Source: Candidatus Helarchaeota archaeon
GTDB lineage: Archaea; Asgardarchaeota; Lokiarchaeia; Helarchaeales; RDOG01
Reading direction: 5' to 3'
NCBI GenBank assembly: GCA_019058315.1
Contig: JAHPZH010000001.1
Coordinates: forward strand, 663,536 to 727,535
DNA: 64,000 nucleotides
The position numbers were made by a program, and so were the translations under genes. Below the pieces are notes generated by a model. It was not told the DNA's origin, did no database searches, and saw nothing but the letters and a program-made list of their open reading frames with translations. Positions 121 through 10,195 of this stretch are shown here, in pieces (the stretch's first letter is position 1; each line of letters opens with the position of its first letter).

Positions 121-387
121 ATGAGTGAAGAGGTTGTAACTTTAACATTTGAGAATGCCGCAACTAAAAAGGAATGGAAAGTCCCAGCTGTTTCTTCAGA
201 GTTGATGAGGGATTATGTAGGTCAAGCAGCAAAACAATTATTTAAACCAATCCCTGCTAGAGTAGGGATTGCAACTAAAGATGGTCAAATCGTTCAAGAT
301 TGGGGCGATAAATCAGTAAGTACAGTTTTAGAACTATATCGAACTAATTCCTTCGTTTTGGGAAGCCCAGATCAACTTGGTTTCTAA
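121..387 (+). CDS. UFM1-like ubiquitin-fold modifier (beta-grasp), C-terminal single Gly plus 1-aa extension
   Basis: 88 aa. AAKQLFKPIPARVGIATKDG...SVSTVLELY...PDQLG|F aligns by eye with human UFM1 AAEEFKVPAATSAIITNDG...TAGNVFLKH...RDRVG|SC (recalled). SD-like GAGGT upstream; adjacent to two UFC1-like genes. Confidence 0.75.
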   Translation: MSEEVVTLTFENAATKKEWKVPAVSSELMRDYVGQAAKQLFKPIPARVGIATKDGQIVQDWGDKSVSTVLELYRTNSFVLGSPDQLGF

Positions 388-407
388 TTTTTCTTATTGG
401 TGTAGGC

Positions 408-956
408 ATGGGTGAAGATAAGGACTGGCTAGATACTTCTAAATACATTGATAGCATTAGTATCGATTTTGATAGGGATTATCTCTCTAAGCATTTTCTA
501 GATTTATACCAATTAAAAATAAAATCTCAAGTTATCATCAAAGAGCTACCAAAGTTTAAAAATACAATGAACGTAAGGTCAACCAATTGGCAAAAGAGAG
601 TTGAAGAAGAATACGAAATTTTCAATATATTAAAGGGAAGATATATTGAACGCATTGGTTTTGCAGTTTTCAATGATTTAAAAGCAGTAGATTCCAACTC
701 AAGAAAATGGACAGCGATGTATTATCGATCAAAACAATCTAGAGGGATTAATGTAAACATTACTCTAAGCTTGACGTATCCAAGAACTTTTCCTACCGCT
801 TTGAGAAATGTTGGTGATCGACACTTAACACCTGGTGCAAAATGCTTTGGTGATTTAAAAACACGTTGGGCAAGAGATGGTAGTATGGGTATTTCGCACT
901 TTTTAGTTATTATCGGCTATTATTTTGCAATAGAAAAACAAAGCCTTCGAGTTTGA
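408..956 (+). CDS. UFC1-like E2 conjugating enzyme, paralog A
   Basis: KELPKFK...WQKRVEEEY, LTYPRTFP, KC146FGDLKTRWARDGSMGISHFLV...FAIE match UFC1 motifs SEIPVLK...WVQRLKEEY, ITYPTTAP, ICLTDHFKPLWARN...GLAHLM...LAVE. The only Cys sits at the catalytic position. Confidence 0.8.
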   Translation: MGEDKDWLDTSKYIDSISIDFDRDYLSKHFLDLYQLKIKSQVIIKELPKFKNTMNVRSTNWQKRVEEEYEIFNILKGRYIERIGFAVFNDLKAVDSNSRKWTAMYYRSKQSRGINVNITLSLTYPRTFPTALRNVGDRHLTPGAKCFGDLKTRWARDGSMGISHFLVIIGYYFAIEKQSLRV

Positions 957-963
957 AAAATAA

Positions 964-1494
964 ATGCCAATAGATATAAAATTATTTGATGTAGGAAGTT
1001 CTATCGGTTATTGGGATTTTATCCGTGATGTTCCTTTATTTAAAACAGTTGCGACTACAAGTAGTAGTAAATGGAAAGAAAGGTTGAAAGAAGAATATGA
1101 AAAATTAAATTATCTGGCAAAATTAACTCAAAAAAATATAATTTTTGACAAAATAGAAGAAGATCGCTCAAATAAAAAAATATTTAACTGTGAAGGACAC
1201 TTTCCTTCTGGAAGAAAAATAACTTTTAATATTCGATTGCCTGTTAGATATCCAAATTCCATTCCTATTGCCGAAAATTTCTATATCCGTGATTGGTATG
1301 TAGGACTTGACAAATTTAAAGCTGCATGTTTTGGTAAAATAAAAGAAAAATGGCGAAAAGATGGTCGTATGGGTTTGGTTCACTTTTTGGTAATGCTTGC
1401 ACATTATACAACTTTTGCTGCATTTAGTATAAATACACCAAAAGTATCAAATTCAAAAAAGAAAAAGAGGTTAAAACAAAAAAGGCTTGGTTAA
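964..1494 (+). CDS. UFC1-like E2 conjugating enzyme, paralog B, with basic C-terminal tail
   Basis: IRDVPLFKT...WKERLKEEY, LPVRYPNSIP, AC122FGKIKEKWRKDGRMGLVHFLV; clear paralog of 408..956; tail KKKKRLKQKRLG. Confidence 0.82.
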   Translation: MPIDIKLFDVGSSIGYWDFIRDVPLFKTVATTSSSKWKERLKEEYEKLNYLAKLTQKNIIFDKIEEDRSNKKIFNCEGHFPSGRKITFNIRLPVRYPNSIPIAENFYIRDWYVGLDKFKAACFGKIKEKWRKDGRMGLVHFLVMLAHYTTFAAFSINTPKVSNSKKKKRLKQKRLG

Positions 1495-1497
1495 AAA

Positions 1498-3120
1498 ATG
1501 GAAGATGAAGATAAATATAAAATAGAAAAAATTGGAACGCCTGCAGGAGATGCTGCCTCTGCACAAAGCGTAGTAGATGCAATAAATTATATCTTATTGA
1601 AATTAAAAGAATTAGATGATTATTATACTGATAAACTAAAATTTCTTGATATTTCCTCCCTAGATCCGATGATAGAAGGAATACATGATAAGATCAATGA
1701 CTTAAAAATAACCCAAGACTTACTTACCCAAAAAATTTCCGAATTAGAAAAGGGAGAAAATATAAATAATCAAGTTTCCAATCAAACTTCAGTAATTACT
1801 CCAGATGCTGATGAGTCTGAAATAATCAGCGATTCACAAGAAATAAAAGAAATGGAAAGCAAAAAGACAAAAACCATCGATAAAAGTAATTTAGAGGATT
1901 TACTTAAGACAATTTTGAATCTACAAGGTGATTTAAGTCTCCTAAGTACATCTAAATTACCAGAAATTTATTCGATTTTACCCTATGAAGAAATTAAAAA
2001 ATCCCTTGAAGAGCTAGGTGGTTATATTGATCAAAAGGATCTTTTAGGATTAACGTTCAGTTTTTTAACATTACCTGATACGGAAATTCCAAAAAATTAT
2101 AAAATTATATTATATGGACCTGAAGGAAACGGTAAAACTTCCATAGTTCATGCATTAACAAAAAAATATGGGTATTCATTAATTCTAATAGATTTTCCAA
2201 AATTAATTACATATTCAGAGAATAAACAAATTCAGGAATTAATTTCTTTTTTCAAAAGTATTAAAGAAAATCAAGAGATCAAGCCTGCAATCTTATTTCT
2301 AGATAATCTTGAAATGATCACTGGAAAGCTATCTTCAAAATACATAATAAAAACCTTAATTCTTGAGATGGAAAAAATAAACCTAGCAGACCATAGAATT
2401 TTAATTGTGGCTGCTACAAGAGATTTAGAACAAATTGGAGAAGAAGTTTTAAAAAGTTTTGACGATTTTGTAGAATTTTCTAATCCTGATGATTTAGAAA
2501 AAAGTAAAATATTAAGAACACTTTTAGACGAAGTTAAATTAGAAAATGGATTAGATATTGATGAACTAACAAATAATTTGGCATTTGATATTGATACTAA
2601 AGACTTTTCATGTTTAGATTTAGAAAATATTTTAAAAATTGTAAAATTTTTATTGATAAAGGAAAGTAGAAATTACGCTATCAAAGCTGATTTTGATAAA
2701 GCTTTACAAAAAATAAAAAGTAGAAATAAGTTAATAAAACAAGAAAAATCAACAAAAACAGAACAAATTTCTGAAAAAGTAGAAAAAATTCAGAGCTTAG
2801 AGGATGAAATCACAAATTTAAAAAATATGATGTGGACATCTAAAGGAATTCTCAAACATAGTTTAAGGCTCGCATTATCTGAGAATTTTGATTTTGTACA
2901 TAGATTATTTAATTTATTTAAAGGTAATAATGCACCATTCACGATCAAAGAAGCAAGCAAAATTCTAGGAATTTCAATTACTGAAGCAAAGAAGGTTCTA
3001 AATAAAGATTCATTTCAAATAATTTTTCCCAAGATCATGAATACGTATCAACCCGCATTTGATCAGGTATTATTTGATGAAATCTCGTTGGAAATTGGCT
3101 TTGGGCTTCAAGGTGATTAA
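1498..3120 (+). CDS. AAA+ family protein, probably catalytically degenerate, with coiled coils and C-terminal HTH
   Basis: Walker A GPEGNGKT; Walker B ILFLDN (E>N); sensor-1 VAATR; SRH region IGEEVLKSFDD lacks Arg fingers; lid DFSCLDLENI; C-terminal FTIKEASKILGISITEAKKVL. Confidence 0.8.
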   Translation: MEDEDKYKIEKIGTPAGDAASAQSVVDAINYILLKLKELDDYYTDKLKFLDISSLDPMIEGIHDKINDLKITQDLLTQKISELEKGENINNQVSNQTSVITPDADESEIISDSQEIKEMESKKTKTIDKSNLEDLLKTILNLQGDLSLLSTSKLPEIYSILPYEEIKKSLEELGGYIDQKDLLGLTFSFLTLPDTEIPKNYKIILYGPEGNGKTSIVHALTKKYGYSLILIDFPKLITYSENKQIQELISFFKSIKENQEIKPAILFLDNLEMITGKLSSKYIIKTLILEMEKINLADHRILIVAATRDLEQIGEEVLKSFDDFVEFSNPDDLEKSKILRTLLDEVKLENGLDIDELTNNLAFDIDTKDFSCLDLENILKIVKFLLIKESRNYAIKADFDKALQKIKSRNKLIKQEKSTKTEQISEKVEKIQSLEDEITNLKNMMWTSKGILKHSLRLALSENFDFVHRLFNLFKGNNAPFTIKEASKILGISITEAKKVLNKDSFQIIFPKIMNTYQPAFDQVLFDEISLEIGFGLQGD

Positions 3121-3185
3121 AAATAAATGAAATAGCCAATAAGCACAAGTCTCCTGAAATGATTTTTGCTAGGAAGTGAAATCCC

Positions 3186-6100
3186 ATTTCAAATTTAAAA
3201 AAAGTCATAATAACAAATTTTAAAACCTTTTTGGGTCGCCACGAGTTAGAATTCCCAAAAAAAGGACTTAGTGTTCTAATTGGTCCTTGTGGTTCTGGAA
3301 AATCTAATGTGTTAGATGCTATTCTTTTTGCAATGGGAATTATTGATGAACGCCGGAAAAATACAGTATTAGAGGTTATTACAGAGGAGCATGAAACACA
3401 TAAACAGTTGGCAAATGCTGCAGAAGTAGAATTAATATTTGAAAATTTAGATGGTGTTCATTCTGAGAATGGGGGAAAATTAAATATTTCAAGGCAATTG
3501 AGAATCCCTGCAAGTGGTCAATTTTATAGCATCTATAAAATGAATGGTAATGAAAGTACAAGATCTGAAATTTTACAGACTTTAAACAAATTTGGAATTC
3601 AACCTGATGGATATAATATTATAAAACAAGGTGAAATTTCAACCCGAATGAAAGATACTCCTGAAAGTAGGAAACAGTTAATAGAAATTGTCTCAGGATT
3701 ATCAGAATTTGATCCTATGATTACAGACGCGGAAAGCAAAATCGATAATTCTCGTAACAATTTAAAACAAATCGATCTTTTACTGAAAGAATCTAAACGC
3801 CAATTATCTGAATTAGAAAAAGAGAAAGAAAGAGCTTTAGAATATAAAGAAATGGAGTCTAAATTAAGTCAATTAAAGGGATTAAAAATACAATATAGAA
3901 AATTTCAATATTTGGAAGATATTAAAAATTTAAAATTGGAAATTGGAAAAATTAAAAAAATTATTCAAGAAGTTGAATCAGAATCTGATAATCTCTTTCA
4001 AAATCTCAAAAAAAATGGGCAAAAAATTGAAGAATTTAGGCAAAAAATTACTGAACTTGAGAAAAATCGCAGTTCTCTTACTGGACATGCTAAATCTATT
4101 GACGATCAAATTCGAGAAATTGAACTAAAAATAAAACAAAACGAAGAAAAGCGTAAATATCAAAAGAAAGATAGAAAGGAAGCACTTCTAAGAGAAATTC
4201 AAAAATTGGAATCAAAAAGACTAGAAATTTCTTCAAAAATGGAAGAAAATGTTAAGAAAAACAATAAAATACAAGGAAATATTCGAGAAGTTCGAGATGT
4301 ATTAGAAAAATATAATAAAGAGCTTCCCGAATTACAAAGTAAGAATAAAGCTATTATATTGAAAATTAGTAACCTGAAAGATGAAATTAATAAACAAACC
4401 AGATTGAAAGATAAAATCGACAAAGAAGTTAGTGAATTACGAATTCGAAAGGATCAATCAGACTCTAAATTCGAAGAAGTCTCAGTAGATTTAGAAAGAA
4501 AAAACAGAAAATTAACTCAAATTAATTCAGAAATCAGTAATATGGCGACAAGAAAGAAAAATTATATTCAAACTATTAACTCAATTACGAAATTTTTTCA
4601 GGAGAGTTTAATAGAATTAAAAGAATTAGAGAAAAAACAACCCATTTTAGACCGAGATCTTAAAGATATGAAAGAATCATTGAAAAAATACGAAGAAGAA
4701 ATGAAAAGTTTGAAACCTCGTTACTCAAGCGATATCAAAGTTATTCTCGAAGGACGAGATAGTGGTAAACTCCCAGGATTAATTGGGACAATATTAGAAT
4801 TAATTAATATAAAAAATATTAATCCAAATTATGCAAAAGCTATTGAAGCAGCTATTAGTGATTATTTTGAACATCTTGTAGTTGAAAATTTTAATGCTTC
4901 AAAAAAAGTAATTGAATATGTAAAAGAAAAAGAATTAGGAAAAACAACTATATATCTTTTAGATAAGATTAAAGGGTGGGATGAAAAAAAACTTCCAATT
5001 TCCACTGGTATTATAGATAAAATGATTAATCTTGTCAAATTTGAGGAAAAATATCGTCAATTATTATCTTTCGTGTTTAAAGATACTGTATTGGCTCAAG
5101 ATTTAGAGACTGCATATAAAATCCATGAAGATTTTAGAGTTGTTACCTTGGAGGGTGAAGTTATTGAACGTAAAGGATATATTATAACCCAAGGAAGATT
5201 TGAACCCAAATTTCTCCTATTATCTGAATATTATAAGGTAAAAATTAAAGATCTTGAAGAAAGAATCCTAAATAAAAGTAAAGAATTGGAAGATATTACC
5301 AGAAAAATAAACAAAATATATGTTAAAAGAGAAAAAGAAGTAAAAAGAAAAGATGAATTAAATAGGTCTATAGGTCAAATTGATGGTAAACAAGAAGAAA
5401 TTATTAATACAAAAGCTGAGCTGGAACAAGATATTGAGGATTTAAGGCATCAAATAAATATTTTAAATGATAATATTGTTGATTATCAAGTAGAAATACA
5501 AAATAAACAAATGGACTTAGCAAATGCATTTAGTGGATTAGACGCTTTGAAATCAGAAAAAGAAAAACTAGATAAAGAATTAAAAACGACAGAATATGGT
5601 CCCATAGAGAAAAAAATAAGAGAAAATAATAATAAATTAAAAAAATTACGAAAAGATGTTAGAGATCTCGAGAAAAAAAGAAACAATTATCGAAATCAAT
5701 TAGTTGATGTCGATTCAAGCATTAAGATTTATAGAGAACGCTATAATTATTCAATTGCAAAAATAGATGAGTTAGATAATGAAAAAGATTCACTAGAAAA
5801 GCATATGGAAGAATTACTTTCAAAAATGGAATCGCAAAATACTGAAATCGCTGAAATTTACTTAGAAATACAAGAATTGGAGAGGGGACAGAAGAAATTA
5901 CAAGATGAAATGGAACTAAAAAAGGAGGAACAGGGTTTTAAAAATAATCAGATTTCCAAGTTAAATGAAAAAATTCATAGTTTAAATAACACAATTGCCA
6001 GAAAAGAAGCATTTATTGAAGAATCCGAAAGCAAGTTAGCCGAGTTAGGAATTGAGTATGATGAAATTCAAAAAATCGATATTGAAAACGTAAATGCTGA

Positions 6101-6758
6101 TATTTATTCATTGGAAAACCAAATGAAATTATTTGGATTAGTCGATCCTAATGCACCAATTAAGTATGAGCGGGAAAATTTAAAATATGAAGAAAGAATT
6201 ACAAAAAAAGAATTATATACAAGAGAGTTGGAAGAGGCTATGAATACATTTTCTGATCTAATTGAACAAAAGAAAACTAAATTCCTTGAAACTCTTGAAA
6301 AAATCAATATTCACTTAAAAAAGGTTTTTAATTACTTCTATAAAGAAGGTACAGCGAAGTTAGTTCCTCAAATTATTAAAGATCCGTTGAATTCAGGAAT
6401 AGAAATCGAAGTAGATTTGGGTTCTGGTATAATAAATAATATCAAAAGCCTTTCAGGTGGGGAGACTAGCTTAGTAGCTATCTCCGTCATCTTGGCTATT
6501 CAAGAATATGAAGGAAGATCTGCACCATTCTATTTCTTGGATGAATTGGATGCACACCTTGATAACACTAAGGGCGAAAAATTGGCCCACCTTATTGCAA
6601 AAATGGCCAAAAATCATCAATATATAATTGTCACCCCAAAAAACAAATATTTAGCAAAATTAGCTAATAGAGTTTTTGCTTTATCAAAAAACGAAAAAGG
6701 ATTTAGTTCCCTACAGTACATTTCCCAAAAAGATTTTGAAAAAGTGGAGGCAACATGA
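3186..6758 (+). CDS. smc: Chromosome segregation protein SMC
   Basis: Walker A GPCGSGKSN, Q-loop IIKQGEI, long coiled coils, hinge (GLIGTILELI...AIEAAI...RVVTLEGEVI), signature LSGGE, Walker B/D-loop FYFLDELDAHLD. The conserved N-terminus ISNLKKVIITNFKTF lies upstream of the ORF-track start (3231), giving a probable ATT start at 3186. Confidence 0.95.
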   Translation: MSNLKKVIITNFKTFLGRHELEFPKKGLSVLIGPCGSGKSNVLDAILFAMGIIDERRKNTVLEVITEEHETHKQLANAAEVELIFENLDGVHSENGGKLNISRQLRIPASGQFYSIYKMNGNESTRSEILQTLNKFGIQPDGYNIIKQGEISTRMKDTPESRKQLIEIVSGLSEFDPMITDAESKIDNSRNNLKQIDLLLKESKRQLSELEKEKERALEYKEMESKLSQLKGLKIQYRKFQYLEDIKNLKLEIGKIKKIIQEVESESDNLFQNLKKNGQKIEEFRQKITELEKNRSSLTGHAKSIDDQIREIELKIKQNEEKRKYQKKDRKEALLREIQKLESKRLEISSKMEENVKKNNKIQGNIREVRDVLEKYNKELPELQSKNKAIILKISNLKDEINKQTRLKDKIDKEVSELRIRKDQSDSKFEEVSVDLERKNRKLTQINSEISNMATRKKNYIQTINSITKFFQESLIELKELEKKQPILDRDLKDMKESLKKYEEEMKSLKPRYSSDIKVILEGRDSGKLPGLIGTILELINIKNINPNYAKAIEAAISDYFEHLVVENFNASKKVIEYVKEKELGKTTIYLLDKIKGWDEKKLPISTGIIDKMINLVKFEEKYRQLLSFVFKDTVLAQDLETAYKIHEDFRVVTLEGEVIERKGYIITQGRFEPKFLLLSEYYKVKIKDLEERILNKSKELEDITRKINKIYVKREKEVKRKDELNRSIGQIDGKQEEIINTKAELEQDIEDLRHQINILNDNIVDYQVEIQNKQMDLANAFSGLDALKSEKEKLDKELKTTEYGPIEKKIRENNNKLKKLRKDVRDLEKKRNNYRNQLVDVDSSIKIYRERYNYSIAKIDELDNEKDSLEKHMEELLSKMESQNTEIAEIYLEIQELERGQKKLQDEMELKKEEQGFKNNQISKLNEKIHSLNNTIARKEAFIEESESKLAELGIEYDEIQKIDIENVNADIYSLENQMKLFGLVDPNAPIKYERENLKYEERITKKELYTRELEEAMNTFSDLIEQKKTKFLETLEKINIHLKKVFNYFYKEGTAKLVPQIIKDPLNSGIEIEVDLGSGIINNIKSLSGGETSLVAISVILAIQEYEGRSAPFYFLDELDAHLDNTKGEKLAHLIAKMAKNHQYIIVTPKNKYLAKLANRVFALSKNEKGFSSLQYISQKDFEKVEAT

Positions 6759-7417
6759 GTAAAAATCAGAAAATAACTGGTAAAAAAGTCAAACAAATTA
6801 TAAGATTATGTCAAAGTGCTTTAAAAGGAAAAACTAAATTAGAAGATGCTGATTTATTAAGCTTTCTGCCTACCCTGAGAACCAGGATCCAGAAAGGAAG
6901 TTTTGATTTTACCTCAATAAAAGCTTTTTCCTTAAGTTCGCATGTCTTAGACCTTAAGACAAGAAATTTATTAGGGGAATTCGTTAAAAATGAGGTTAAA
7001 TCTAAAAATAATCTGTTTGAAATACTTGATAATGAAGATTCATTAGAATCGGTTATTTTGTATCCTATTAACAGTTTTAAAGATTTCTTCATAGAAGAAG
7101 ACATTATTAAGGCATATAATGAACTCTTAATATTGCGTAGAAATAGACCTGATTATTCGGTTTTTGGCAAAGAAGGTATATGTGTTCAGAAAGAAAGTGA
7201 ATATGAGGAAGTAGATAGTTTTGAACAAGATAAAATAAATTTTTTCATGAGGCTGAATAAATTAAATAAAAAAGTTATCGATTTTAATTCTTTACAGACT
7301 AATTGGGAAGATGCTGTTATTAATCTCTTATATTTAGTTCACCTCTCACAAGAGGGTAAAATTAATTTGGAACAAAAATTACCTGATAATAAAATCTTTA
7401 TTAGATTAAGAAATTAA
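6755..7417 (+). CDS. scpA: Kleisin ScpA-like subunit
   Basis: ATGA overlap with the smc stop; C-terminal kleisin winged-helix pattern DAVINLLYLVHLSQEGKINLEQKLPDNKIFIRL. Confidence 0.8.
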   Translation: MSKNQKITGKKVKQIIRLCQSALKGKTKLEDADLLSFLPTLRTRIQKGSFDFTSIKAFSLSSHVLDLKTRNLLGEFVKNEVKSKNNLFEILDNEDSLESVILYPINSFKDFFIEEDIIKAYNELLILRRNRPDYSVFGKEGICVQKESEYEEVDSFEQDKINFFMRLNKLNKKVIDFNSLQTNWEDAVINLLYLVHLSQEGKINLEQKLPDNKIFIRLRN

Positions 7418-7418
7418 G

Positions 7419-7910
7419 GTGAGAAAATTTAATCATCAAAAAGCTCTTGAGGCTCTATTAATTCTAAGAGGAGAAACAGGAATTTCTGTAAATGATATTT
7501 ATAAAATTACTAAAATTAACGATATTGAATATAGCTTTTATTTATTAAATTTAATTGAAAAATCTTTAAATGATTCTTCCCTTTTTTTAAAATATAACCC
7601 TGCCAAAAAACGGTATTTCTTAGCTCTACCTAATGAATATTATAGTTTTTTATCCGAAAAAGATTTAATAAAATCACCTTTATCAAAAAGTGTTTTAGCT
7701 ACACTTGCCTGCATTATAATAGAATTGGAAGAAGGGGTAGTTACTGTTGAAAAATTAAAACAACTTAGAGGAAAAATGGTAATAAATCATTTAAAATCAT
7801 TGGAAAATGAAGGTTTAATTACAATATCTGAAGAAAATATTCTCCCCACTGATAAATTATTAACAAAAATTAACATAAATCAAGTAATCAAAGGAATAAA
7901 AGAAATATAA
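7419..7910 (+). CDS. scpB: Kite subunit ScpB-like
   Basis: ALEALL..., PLSKSVLATLACI, VTVEKLKQLRG...HLKSLENEGLI...PTDKLL (tandem winged helix); directly follows scpA. Confidence 0.85.
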   Translation: MRKFNHQKALEALLILRGETGISVNDIYKITKINDIEYSFYLLNLIEKSLNDSSLFLKYNPAKKRYFLALPNEYYSFLSEKDLIKSPLSKSVLATLACIIIELEEGVVTVEKLKQLRGKMVINHLKSLENEGLITISEENILPTDKLLTKININQVIKGIKEI

Positions 7911-8383: not shown

Positions 8384-10195
8384 ATGAAAAAGCAAACCAC
8401 AGCAATATTATTGATATGTATTATTGCTGGAGCTTCTGGATTTACTTTTGCATACATTTACATGACACAACAAGAAGGAATGGATCTTACATTGTTATTT
8501 TTGGTTATGATACCTCCAAAGATCAATACAGAGCCAGTTGTATTTATCTCTAAATGGGACACAACAAAAACAAGTTCGGGTTCAAGCGCAGTCGATCAGG
8601 TTAAATTGCCTTTGGTATCATTAGGAGATTATGATTTTACGGTTTATTGGGGCGATGGTACTCAAAATACAATTACAGCTTGGAATCAAACCGAAGTAAC
8701 GCACACTTATATTCCGCAAGGTGAGTATACTATTAAAATAAAAGGGAAACTAATCGGTTGGAGATTTAATAATGGGGGAGATCGTTTAAAACTACTTGAA
8801 ATTAGTAGATGGGGTTCCATTCAATTAGGAGATTCAAGCGATTATTTCTACGGATGCAATAACTTGAATCTTACGGCTATTGATAATTTAAATTTAACCG
8901 GGACGAGTAGTCTCCAAAATGCTTTTGGTGCTTGCAATAATCTCGGTAGCACTGGAAATATGAACGGCTGGGACGTCTCCAGCGTCACCGACATGAGCGG
9001 AATGTTCGTTGATGCAGGTTATTTTAATCAAAACATCAGTAGCTGGAATGTCTCTAGCGTCACCGACATGAGTGCGATGTTCTGGGGTACAAGTTCATTT
9101 AATCAAAATATTGGTAGCTGGAATGTCTCCAGCGTTATCGACATGAGCGGGATGTTCTATGGTGCGAGTTCATTCAATCAAGACATTGGTGGCTGGAACG
9201 TCTCCAACGTCATAAACATGGCATCGATGTTCTGTACTGCGAGTTCGTTTAATCAAGACATTGGCAGTTGGGACGTTTCCAGCGTTATTGACATGAACTA
9301 TATGTTCTCTGCTGCGAGTTCATTTGCTCAAGACATCAGTAGTTGGGATGTCTCCAGCGTCACCGACATGAGCGGAATGTTTTTGGGTGCTAGTTGGTTT
9401 AATTCACCTATCGGCGGCTGGAATGTGTCCAGCGTCATAAACATGAATGCAATGTTCCAAGATGCGAGTGTGTTTAATGAAGACATCGGCGGCTGGAATG
9501 TCTCCAGCGTGACAAACATGGGATCGATGTTCCATTATGCGAGTTTTTTTGATCAAGATATTGGCAGTTGGAACGTCTCCAGCGTCACCGACATGAGCGG
9601 GATGTTCTATGGTGCGAGTTCGTTTAATCAAGACATCGGAGGCTGGAATGTCTCCAGCATCATAAACATGGGATCGATGTTTTTTGAAGCATTTTCATTT
9701 AATAAAGACATTGGCGGCTGGAATGTCTCCAGCGTCACAACCATGAATGGGATGTTCTATAATGCAATTTTATTTAATCAAAATATTAGCGGCTGGAATG
9801 TCTCCAGCGTCACAACCATGGCATCGATGTTTGCTTATGCAAGTTCTTTTAATCAATCCATTGGCAGCTGGAATGTCTCTAGCGTCATATTCATGACTGG
9901 GATGTTCAGTCAAGCGACCTCATTTAATCAGAACATCAGTAGTTGGAACATCTCCAGCGTCATAGATATGAGTAATATGTTCAATGGAGTAACTTTATCA
10001 ACAGCAAACTACGATAGTTTACTAATCGGGTGGTCGCAACTACCAGTGCAAAATAATGTACCGTTTCATGCAGGTGGTTCTACATACAGTGCAGCGCCGT
10101 CGCCCGCTGCTACTGGAAGAGAACACCTCACTAACTCCACTAGCTCCATCCCCCCTGGTCATAATTGGCAAATTACTGACGGTGGACCAATATAG
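8384..10195 (+). CDS. DUF285/BspA-type leucine-rich-repeat surface protein with N-terminal anchor and PKD-like domain
   Basis: N-terminal TM; FISKWDT...[10 protein letters not shown]...HTY...GEYTIKI; 25-aa repeats W(D/N)[21 protein letters not shown]; cap [14 protein letters not shown]...WQITDGG. Confidence 0.9.
8960..9982 (+). repeat. Coding tandem repeat, 75-bp unit, 13 full copies plus one partial
   Basis: Recurrent TGG(A/G)A(T/C)GTCTCCAGCGTCA...ATGTT at 75-bp period inside the DUF285 gene. Confidence 0.92.

Follow-up and report, generated by a model that had tools for sequence, protein, structure and literature searches.

The eukaryotic UFM1 pathway consists of a small modifier, UFM1, whose single C-terminal Gly is masked by a short extension, of the activating (E1) and conjugating (E2) enzymes UBA5 and UFC1, of the cysteine proteases UFSP1/2, and of the ligase (E3) UFL1-DDRGK1-CDK5RAP3. 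Picchianti et al. considered UFM1 and UFC1 exclusively eukaryotic and UBA5 widespread (PMC10183829). Köstlbacher et al. found Ufm1 homologs by structure in nine Asgard clades, and mention neither UFC1 nor SMC (PMC12962969). The ubiquitin operons of Caldiarchaeum and Asgard archaea and the bacterial Bil systems encode a tag, an E1, an E2, and a JAB/Rpn11-like protease together; their tags are of the Gly-Gly ubiquitin type, their E2s of the UBC or Bil type, and their E1s larger, and none has been described with an SMC complex. As for the latter, Smc-ScpAB of Pyrococcus and Bacillus subtilis unites an SMC protein, made of head, long coiled coil, and hinge, with a kleisin (ScpA) and a kite subunit (ScpB). 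TACK and Asgard archaea often have two complete SMC-kleisin-kite operons, with no ubiquitin-like (Ubl) conjugation genes mentioned beside them, and the ubiquitin-ligase function of Nse1 is regarded as a eukaryotic innovation (10.1101/2024.01.07.573240). In Smc5/6 an SMC-kleisin-kite complex is tied to Ubl conjugation through Nse1, a RING ubiquitin ligase, and Nse2, a SUMO ligase. UFMylation also has a role in the DNA-damage response, where MRE11, which works beside the SMC-like RAD50, and histone H4 are modified. Here we describe a stretch of 64,000 nucleotides (nt) from a Candidatus Helarchaeota archaeon (the window, contig 3, 663536–727535, of a genome of 5.79 Mb in 12 contigs with ~30% G+C), at the start of which genes of a UFM1-type cascade stand beside those of an extra SMC complex.

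Seven genes, all on the forward strand, encode a UFM1-like modifier (tag), two UFC1-like E2s (E2A and E2B), an AAA+ protein, a divergent SMC here called SMC-W, a ScpA-like kleisin, and ScpB (table 1). Their gaps of 20, 7, 3, 65, −4, and 1 nt reproduce those given in the initial annotation; the scpA-like frame overlaps the smc stop by 4 nt, so that kleisin and kite frames overlap or abut as in known Smc-ScpAB operons. A JAB protease gene and a UBA5-like E1 gene lie ~3–5 kb upstream of the window, separated from the rest by three unrelated genes. We consider it reasonably probable that in this nine-gene Helarchaeales module a UFM1-type cascade is functionally coupled to a dedicated AAA+/SMC/kleisin/kite set; the grounds are the genes present and their homologies, the conservation of catalytic residues and of the linkage, and a pattern of joint presence or absence.

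The predicted fold of the tag is UFM1-like. Its AF2 model (predicted local distance difference test score, pLDDT, 94.4) was compared with the PDB by VIA-align, and the ten best rows were all UFM1 (Z 10.5–12.2, root-mean-square deviation 1.5–2.2 Å over 74–80 residues). The best non-UFM1 match was a bacterial Bil Ubl (8tyx, Z 9.8), and among the matches listed no ubiquitin or SUMO entry rose above Z 8.7. UFM1 leads its best competitor by at least 1.7 Z units, and Foldseek ranks the matches in the same order, with UFM1 first. Primary sequence sets the tag apart from eukaryotic UFM1: Pfam Ufm1 (PF03671) gave no match to it in hmmscan at E values up to 1, nor to any protein of the genome at E values up to 10, and a profile of the tag family did not match UFM1 in the PDB. 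At the C-terminus, the motif PDQLG is invariant in 18/18 tag homologs, its Gly being followed by nothing in eight, by one residue in seven, by three residues in one, and by a 57-amino-acid (aa) tail in two. As read from this alignment, the pattern is that expected of a modifier trimmed to its terminal Gly, and recalls the masked single Gly of UFM1. The two homologs with the 57-residue extension (P0014 and P0015, 148 aa each) would be precursor forms in need of endoproteolytic processing.

E2A and E2B are paralogs with an E2 fold, and by their sequences both resemble UFC1 more closely than they do canonical UBC E2s. Against Pfam UFC1 (PF08694) they score 14.8 and 22.3 bits, respectively, with a gathering cut-off of 25 that neither passes; an E2 ortholog on a metagenome contig (L057) carries a precomputed, unmarked UFC1 match. 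Searched against the PDB, the profile of the E2 family retrieves UFC1 at E values of 2.5e-6 to 6e-5, and canonical E2s (UBE2N) only at E ~0.6. An exhaustive HMMER profile search of 1.84 billion representative proteins found only 44 that match the family, among them four eukaryotic UFC1 (E 7e-5 to 6e-4) and one canonical E2 (3.6e-4). For E2B, UFC1 also ranks first among the fold matches of a predicted structure of low confidence (pLDDT only 59.6). Invariant across the alignment of 19 family members are the catalytic Cys, YP..P, and, near the N-terminus, PLFK...W..R..EE, which lies in the region (PLFK...W..RLKEEY) that resembles UFC1. No invariant HPN is found between YP..P and the Cys, and no conserved Thr-Ala-Lys (TAK) takes its place; the family therefore resembles UFC1 in having lost HPN and differs from it in lacking TAK. 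E2A orthologs in two other families of the order, f2 and f3, retain 47–51% identity, and most E2B orthologs keep a Lys/Arg-rich C-terminal tail. The expectation raised at first annotation, that the first three genes encode UFM1- and UFC1-like proteins, the modifier being a beta-grasp protein that ends in a single Gly plus one residue, is thus borne out by the fold check named beforehand, with a UFM1-like fold, a PDQLG-F end, and E2 profiles that match UFC1. A third UFC1-like E2 is encoded in the same genome outside any cassette (L042:5942-7138, reverse strand; contig 11, ~449944–451138) and is fused to N-terminal HEAT repeats. Relatives elsewhere (P0150, P0157, P0158, and P0161) are fused to Roadblock and a Ras-type GTPase, to a zinc-ribbon, or to other domains.

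The E1 is likewise closest to its UFM1-pathway counterpart. Searched against the PDB, it matches UBA5 best (94.7 bits, E 6e-26), ahead of MccB (67 bits), ThiF (56), and MoeB (52). In the alignment, VCAASLPTTM of UBA5, which holds the thioester Cys (UBA5 Cys250), stands opposite PCGASLASTM, and CFAC opposite CLEC (the zinc CxxC). The match ends at residue 238 of the 269-aa protein, and no counterpart of the long UFM1/UFC1-binding C-terminal tail of UBA5 is recognizable, short linear motifs being possible. The JAB protein has a full JAMM motif, E...HxHx7Sx2D (E...HKHPGx7SxxD); EVGFY and HKHPG-x-S-x-TD are invariant in four orthologs, with seven residues separating the second His from the Ser in the window's genome and six in the other three. 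Pfam Prok-JAB matches these proteins only below threshold (E 0.05–0.16), and the best, weak PDB match of their profile is the Rpn11-like protease of Caldiarchaeum (6fjv, E 0.014). Since the two genes found upstream also sit inside the operon of family f2, where they share 33–37% (JAB) and 61–64% (E1) identity with the upstream pair, the tagging half is, on this evidence from gene content, a complete set of tag, E1, two E2s, and protease.

Co-encoding of these parts is what the module has in common with the Caldiarchaeum, Asgard, and Bil operons, whereas its three core components are of the UFM1/UBA5/UFC1 type. It departs from the eukaryotic pathway in its operon organization and link to SMC, in the two E2 paralogs (three in family f3), and in a JAB metalloprotease that replaces the cysteine protease UFSP1/2. 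Peptidase_C78 (UFSP) was not found in the genome, a result that shows little, the same search having found none in any control genome. The locus holds no ligase, and none of the nine module proteins has a RING-type domain. UFL1-like winged-helix proteins are encoded elsewhere, far from the cassette: two matches to Pfam E3_UFM1_ligase (UFL1) exceed the cut-off (L053, contig 11, 225662–226219; L054, contig 1, 161036–161518).

The second half of the module centers on SMC-W. SMC_N spans residues 4–1174 (E 1e-26) and SMC_hinge is clear (E 1.8e-21); Walker A, Q-loop, LSGGE signature, and Walker B DE are all intact in the translation. The score against TIGR02169, the archaeal chromosome-segregation SMC, is 574.6 bits, under the cut-off of 729.4. 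A second, canonical SMC locus exists in the genome (L031, contig 11, 648000–667000; 5738–7442 and 9922–14628), with two ScpB paralogs (281 and 343 aa), a Gtr1/RagA-type small GTPase gene between them, and a 276-aa gene before the first. In a maximum-likelihood tree this canonical copy groups with Loki and Odin SMCs (98 in the Shimodaira–Hasegawa-like approximate likelihood ratio test, SH-aLRT), while SMC-W and its orthologs branch apart from the Asgard SMC clade, as a fully supported clade of their own on a long stem. The distance along the tree from one family to another is ~1.9 times as great for SMC-W as for the canonical copy, the same families being compared. We thus reject the possibility that SMC-W is the ordinary SMC of the lineage; judged by similarity and phylogeny, it is an extra divergent paralog beside the canonical SMC in this genome. 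Orthologs with at least 33% identity were found in genome searches only in Helarchaeales, and also on metagenome contigs, the named ones labeled Hel-, Loki-, or Hodarchaeota; outside the clade, best matches fall to 24–28% identity. The best PDB matches of SMC-W are the SMC heads and hinge of Pyrococcus and Bacillus, others being prokaryotic SMC and SMC1-4, and no Smc5/6 entry is among the matches listed. The head is far less conserved than that of the canonical copy (200 vs. 382 bits against 5xei). A Smc5/6-like identity was considered and rejected on the PDB matches and the tree; in sequence, both copies are of the condensin/cohesin type.

The kleisin is barely recognizable. A profile of four orthologs matches in the PDB only the C-terminal winged helix of Pyrococcus ScpA bound to the SMC head (4i99_C and 5xns_C, E 0.07–0.11), and its identity comes from this weak match together with its position between smc and scpB. 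ScpB is clear (41.7 bits against the Pfam SMC_ScpB cut-off of 27.4), and the order smc-scpA-scpB is kept in the orthologous loci. The module therefore has the full SMC/kleisin/kite set first proposed for it: an SMC with hinge, a clear ScpB, and a weakly matched ScpA in conserved order. Between families, SMC-W, AAA, and ScpA share 26–37% identity, the canonical SMC 50%, and tag and E1 61–70%.

The AAA+ gene, a difference from Smc-ScpAB of Pyrococcus and Bacillus, always lies directly upstream of the SMC-W gene, with a gap of 0–35 nt in the orthologs. Its product comprises a conserved N-terminal motif, a coiled coil, the AAA core, and a conserved C-terminal helix-turn-helix-like domain, for which a Protein Atlas look-up gave no usable match. 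In all five orthologs Walker A is intact (GPxGxGK[ST]), Walker B reads D/E-N, an invariant Asn replacing the catalytic Glu, and no conserved Arg finger is present; the protein is probably a competent ATP binder but a poor ATPase. Searches for orthologs in genomes of other families that bear the cassette gave only generic AAA cores. A 123-aa frame in another Asgard family (G289:C167:820-1122) matches only the N-terminal region (E 9e-9), which suggests that this region is a separable domain.

One argument for coupling is the persistence of the linkage across rearrangements. The order in the window's genome (family f1) is tag-E2A-E2B-AAA-SMC-ScpA-ScpB, with JAB-E1 displaced. In family f2 all nine genes are colinear, as tag, E2A, JAB, E1, E2B, AAA, SMC, ScpA, and ScpB, so that JAB and E1 lie between the two E2 genes (genomes G125 and G123, and two independent metagenome contigs, L055 and L057). 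Family f3 has in succession E2A-JAB-E1, two inverted E2B-type genes, and AAA-SMC-ScpA-ScpB, while its tag gene lies outside this cluster (G126, G127, and the GenBank contig L056). The adjacency of E2B, AAA, and SMC thus outlasts three different arrangements in three families. Moreover, a genome from the window's own family (G128, 94% complete) gave no match for tag, E2s, AAA ortholog, or SMC-W and keeps the canonical SMC, and searches found neither a full-length AAA ortholog nor SMC-W in any genome devoid of the cassette. It had been anticipated that related genomes would show the ufm1-ufc1 block next to smc; E2-AAA-SMC adjacency indeed recurs in three families, and the relative without the cassette is also without SMC-W. 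In f3 a gene resembling a DDE transposase, by a weak Pfam match, is found at a distance of ~1.7 kb from the displaced tag gene and may relate to its displacement (L022:13378-15105, G126 contig 160).

Table 1. Genes of the module, with positions in the window unless a locus upstream of it is named.
Feature	Position	Strand	Evidence or remark
UFM1-like ubiquitin-fold modifier (tag), 88 aa	121..387	+	AF2 fold; PDQLG then single F at C-terminus
UFC1-like E2 copy A (E2A), 182 aa	408..956	+	Catalytic Cys kept in AKCFG; Pfam UFC1 E 0.023, below cut-off
UFC1-like E2 copy B (E2B), 176 aa	964..1494	+	Catalytic Cys in AACFG; polybasic C-terminal tail; Pfam UFC1 E 1.1e-4
AAA+ protein, 540 aa	1498..3120	+	Pfam AAA E 1.5e-17
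Divergent SMC paralog (SMC-W), 1190 aa from ATT 3186	3186..6758	+	Pfam SMC_N and SMC_hinge; first canonical start is TTG 3231
Divergent ScpA-like kleisin, 220 aa	6755..7417	+	Pfam SMC_ScpA matches the C-terminal region alone (E 0.042)
Kite subunit ScpB, 163 aa	7419..7910	+	Pfam SMC_ScpB E 1.1e-10; TIGR00281 E 4e-9
JAB/MPN+ metalloprotease, 372 aa	L010:9345-10466, upstream of window	Opposite to module	JAMM motif
UBA5-like E1, ThiF fold, 269 aa	L010:8523-9335, upstream of window	Opposite to module	PDB profile matches

The gap of 65 nt between AAA and SMC presupposes that the latter starts at the ATT codon. The TTG chosen by gene callers would cost 15 conserved residues at the N-terminus of the ATPase head, and with them its first strand. 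A relative with 84% identity has ATG at this position (MSNLKK, against ISNLKK in the window), and the Shine-Dalgarno-like motif AGGAAGTGA stands 6 nt 5′ of 3186. On these grounds the ATT is most likely the true start, either as a rare start codon or through a recent ATG-to-ATT change. The AAA-SMC junction is spanned by contigs from two further sediment samples of a separate study. A T5 run within the gap (3163–3167) could be an archaeal terminator signal. A promoter and terminator scan with bacterial models gave the same counts as shuffled sequence.

The module ends at 7910 and is followed by an unrelated gene for a DUF285-repeat surface protein (8384–10195), where the G+C content rises locally to 0.43 from ~0.29 around it. 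In f2 and f3 a gene of 98–108 aa follows scpB, succeeded on L055–L057 by a 72–80-aa PF02594 gene (L055:12116-12653, L056:13939-14519, L057:13623-14197, L032:15340-15663); neither comes after scpB in the window. On the other side, a RadA (Rad51-family) recombinase gene lies ~1.9 kb past E1 and ~7 kb upstream of the window (L010:5653-6603, reverse strand), to which we assign no significance. In another Asgard family (L041:8506-12077, G119 contig 46), the five-gene cassette is followed by proteins of 625 and 310 aa and a fusion of HEAT repeats with a ubiquitin-family domain, which may be a different client module.

Several observations weigh against functional coupling, and most of them fit a scenario in which the adjacency is by descent only: the cassette would have other substrates, as is necessarily so where a lineage has it and no SMC beside it, AAA-SMC-ScpAB would be an independent condensin paralog, and the two would have been neighbors since the Helarchaeales ancestor. 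The linkage is confined to this one order, in about six representative genomes and a handful of metagenome contigs. The five-gene cassette occurs with no SMC or AAA neighbor in at least three other Asgard families (f21, f22, and f24) and on metagenome contigs. In one further genome that has the cassette (G124, 82% complete), 940 nt of noncoding DNA separate E2B from the next gene, which is for a membrane protein; searches detected neither AAA nor SMC-W in this genome, and after E2B no hidden or decayed AAA gene can be recognized. JAB and E1 are already apart from the rest in the window's genome. Between f2 and f3 the flanking small genes after scpB are syntenic as well, so that inherited gene order explains part of the linkage. 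A canonical SMC was not found in f3, and SMC-W, perhaps the sole SMC there, may thus be its housekeeping condensin. Lastly, no E3, nuclease, or other effector was seen in or beside the locus. Descent only, on the other hand, sits poorly with an E2B/AAA/SMC adjacency that survived three rearrangements in three families, with the joint absence of the whole set from the G128 searches, with the failure to find AAA or SMC-W orthologs outside cassette-bearing genomes, and with a basic E2B tail suited to nucleic acid. We hold this scenario to be possible, if somewhat doubtful.

Should the two halves act together, they might constitute a dedicated defence against plasmids and viruses, with the extra SMC ring sensing foreign DNA like Wadjet or Smc5/6 and UFM1-type tagging serving as signal or effector arm as in Bil. 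The patchy distribution and loss of the module as a whole, the fast evolution of SMC-W, AAA, and ScpA noted above, the presence of SMC-W as an extra beside the housekeeping SMC, and the place of the Bil Ubl, second only to UFM1 among the structural matches of the tag, would all agree with such a role. Nevertheless, we consider it unlikely, given that the operon and its flanks lack genes for nucleases or other effectors, that ordinary metabolic and surface genes surround it instead of a defence island, that SMC-W is of the condensin type and neither MukB/JetC-like nor Smc5/6-like, and that SMC-W may be the only SMC of f3. PADLOC returned just generic superfamily matches (LmuB/JetC) for SMC and none for kleisin, kite, tag, or E2s. 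Assignment to the known SMC-type defence systems Wadjet (JetABCD) and Lamassu (LmuABC) was rejected, the matches being superfamily-level only and no nuclease being present. A sulfur-carrier pair of the MoaD/ThiS-MoeB/ThiF type, acting in cofactor or tRNA thiolation, is highly improbable: the E1 is a bare 269-aa ThiF-fold adenylation domain and the genome has eight ThiF-family genes, as such a pair would have it, but a JAB isopeptidase and two proteins of the E2 fold whose catalytic Cys is invariant are encoded with it, UBA5 matches the E1 far better than ThiF/MoeB do, with the thioester Cys aligned, and the tag is nearest to UFM1, not to MoaD/ThiS.

Returning to functional coupling, which we favor, we infer conjugation activity, substrates, the AAA+ role, and the biological outcome as follows. 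The JAB protease would trim the residue or tail behind Gly87 of the tag, which the UBA5-like E1 would then adenylate and load on its conserved Cys, before handing it to the Cys of the two UFC1-like E2s. The polybasic tail of E2B may place the charged E2 on DNA or on an acidic partner. Binding ATP and hardly hydrolysing it, the AAA+ protein could act between E2~tag and the SMC-kleisin-kite ring, where it would be an adaptor, an E3-like scaffold, a loader, or a regulator. Targets would be subunits of the SMC-W complex or proteins that it meets on DNA, and the JAB protease might also take the tag off again. The outcome could be chromosome maintenance or the restriction of foreign DNA. More tentatively, and as a proposal that we regard as conceivable rather than probable, covalent UFM1-type tagging may control an SMC machine that Helarchaeales have invented or retained, through its loading, its turnover, or its DNA-bound targets, with a hydrolysis-dead AAA+ protein in the part of ligase-like adaptor. 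Such a machine would parallel, in a prokaryote, both Smc5/6-Nse1/Nse2 and the UFMylation at MRE11-RAD50, and might silence or restrict extrachromosomal DNA.

How does this module relate to the described systems? With Smc5/6 it shares an SMC-kleisin-kite set tied to Ubl conjugation enzymes, here by gene linkage, and the status of an extra SMC complex beside one of the condensin/cohesin type. In contrast, SMC-W has no match to Smc5/6 among those listed in its PDB search (the canonical copy only a weak one), RING and SP-RING domains are lacking, and separate E1, E2, and protease genes stand beside SMC, instead of ligase domains within the subunits. As the linkage is confined to one order, it would be an independent invention relative to Smc5/6. 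The initial annotation had raised the idea of a precursor of eukaryotic Ubl-SMC coupling; with the linkage in one order only, an SMC of the condensin/cohesin type, and the cassette occurring with no SMC in other Asgard families, such an ancestral connection is unsupported. Its view of UFM1/UBA5/UFC1 as eukaryotic is out of date for UFM1, given the Asgard Ufm1 homologs (PMC12962969). Compared with the duplicated archaeal SMC complexes (10.1101/2024.01.07.573240), the window's genome likewise has two SMC operons, but Ubl-conjugation genes are attached to one of them and both copies are of the condensin type. The belief that the linkage had not been described before was upheld, as full-text literature searches on Asgard with UFC1, with UFMylation, or with SMC/kleisin/ubiquitin retrieved no account of it; nor was a description of an archaeal UFC1 found in the searchable literature.

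A UFM1/UBA5/UFC1-type cascade linked to a dedicated SMC complex is therefore a new pairing of parts of known kinds, and one that is experimentally tractable. With tag, E1, two E2s, and protease co-encoded, the pathway should be reconstitutable from five small proteins, and the canonical and specialized SMC complexes of a single genome offer a natural pair for comparison. The pairing recalls the ties of Ubl tagging to SMC-type machines in eukaryotes, both in Smc5/6 and in the UFMylation of the DNA-damage response. In Helarchaeales it would provide a simple, genetically defined system for asking what tagging does to an SMC ring, and whether the link between the two is ancestral or convergent.

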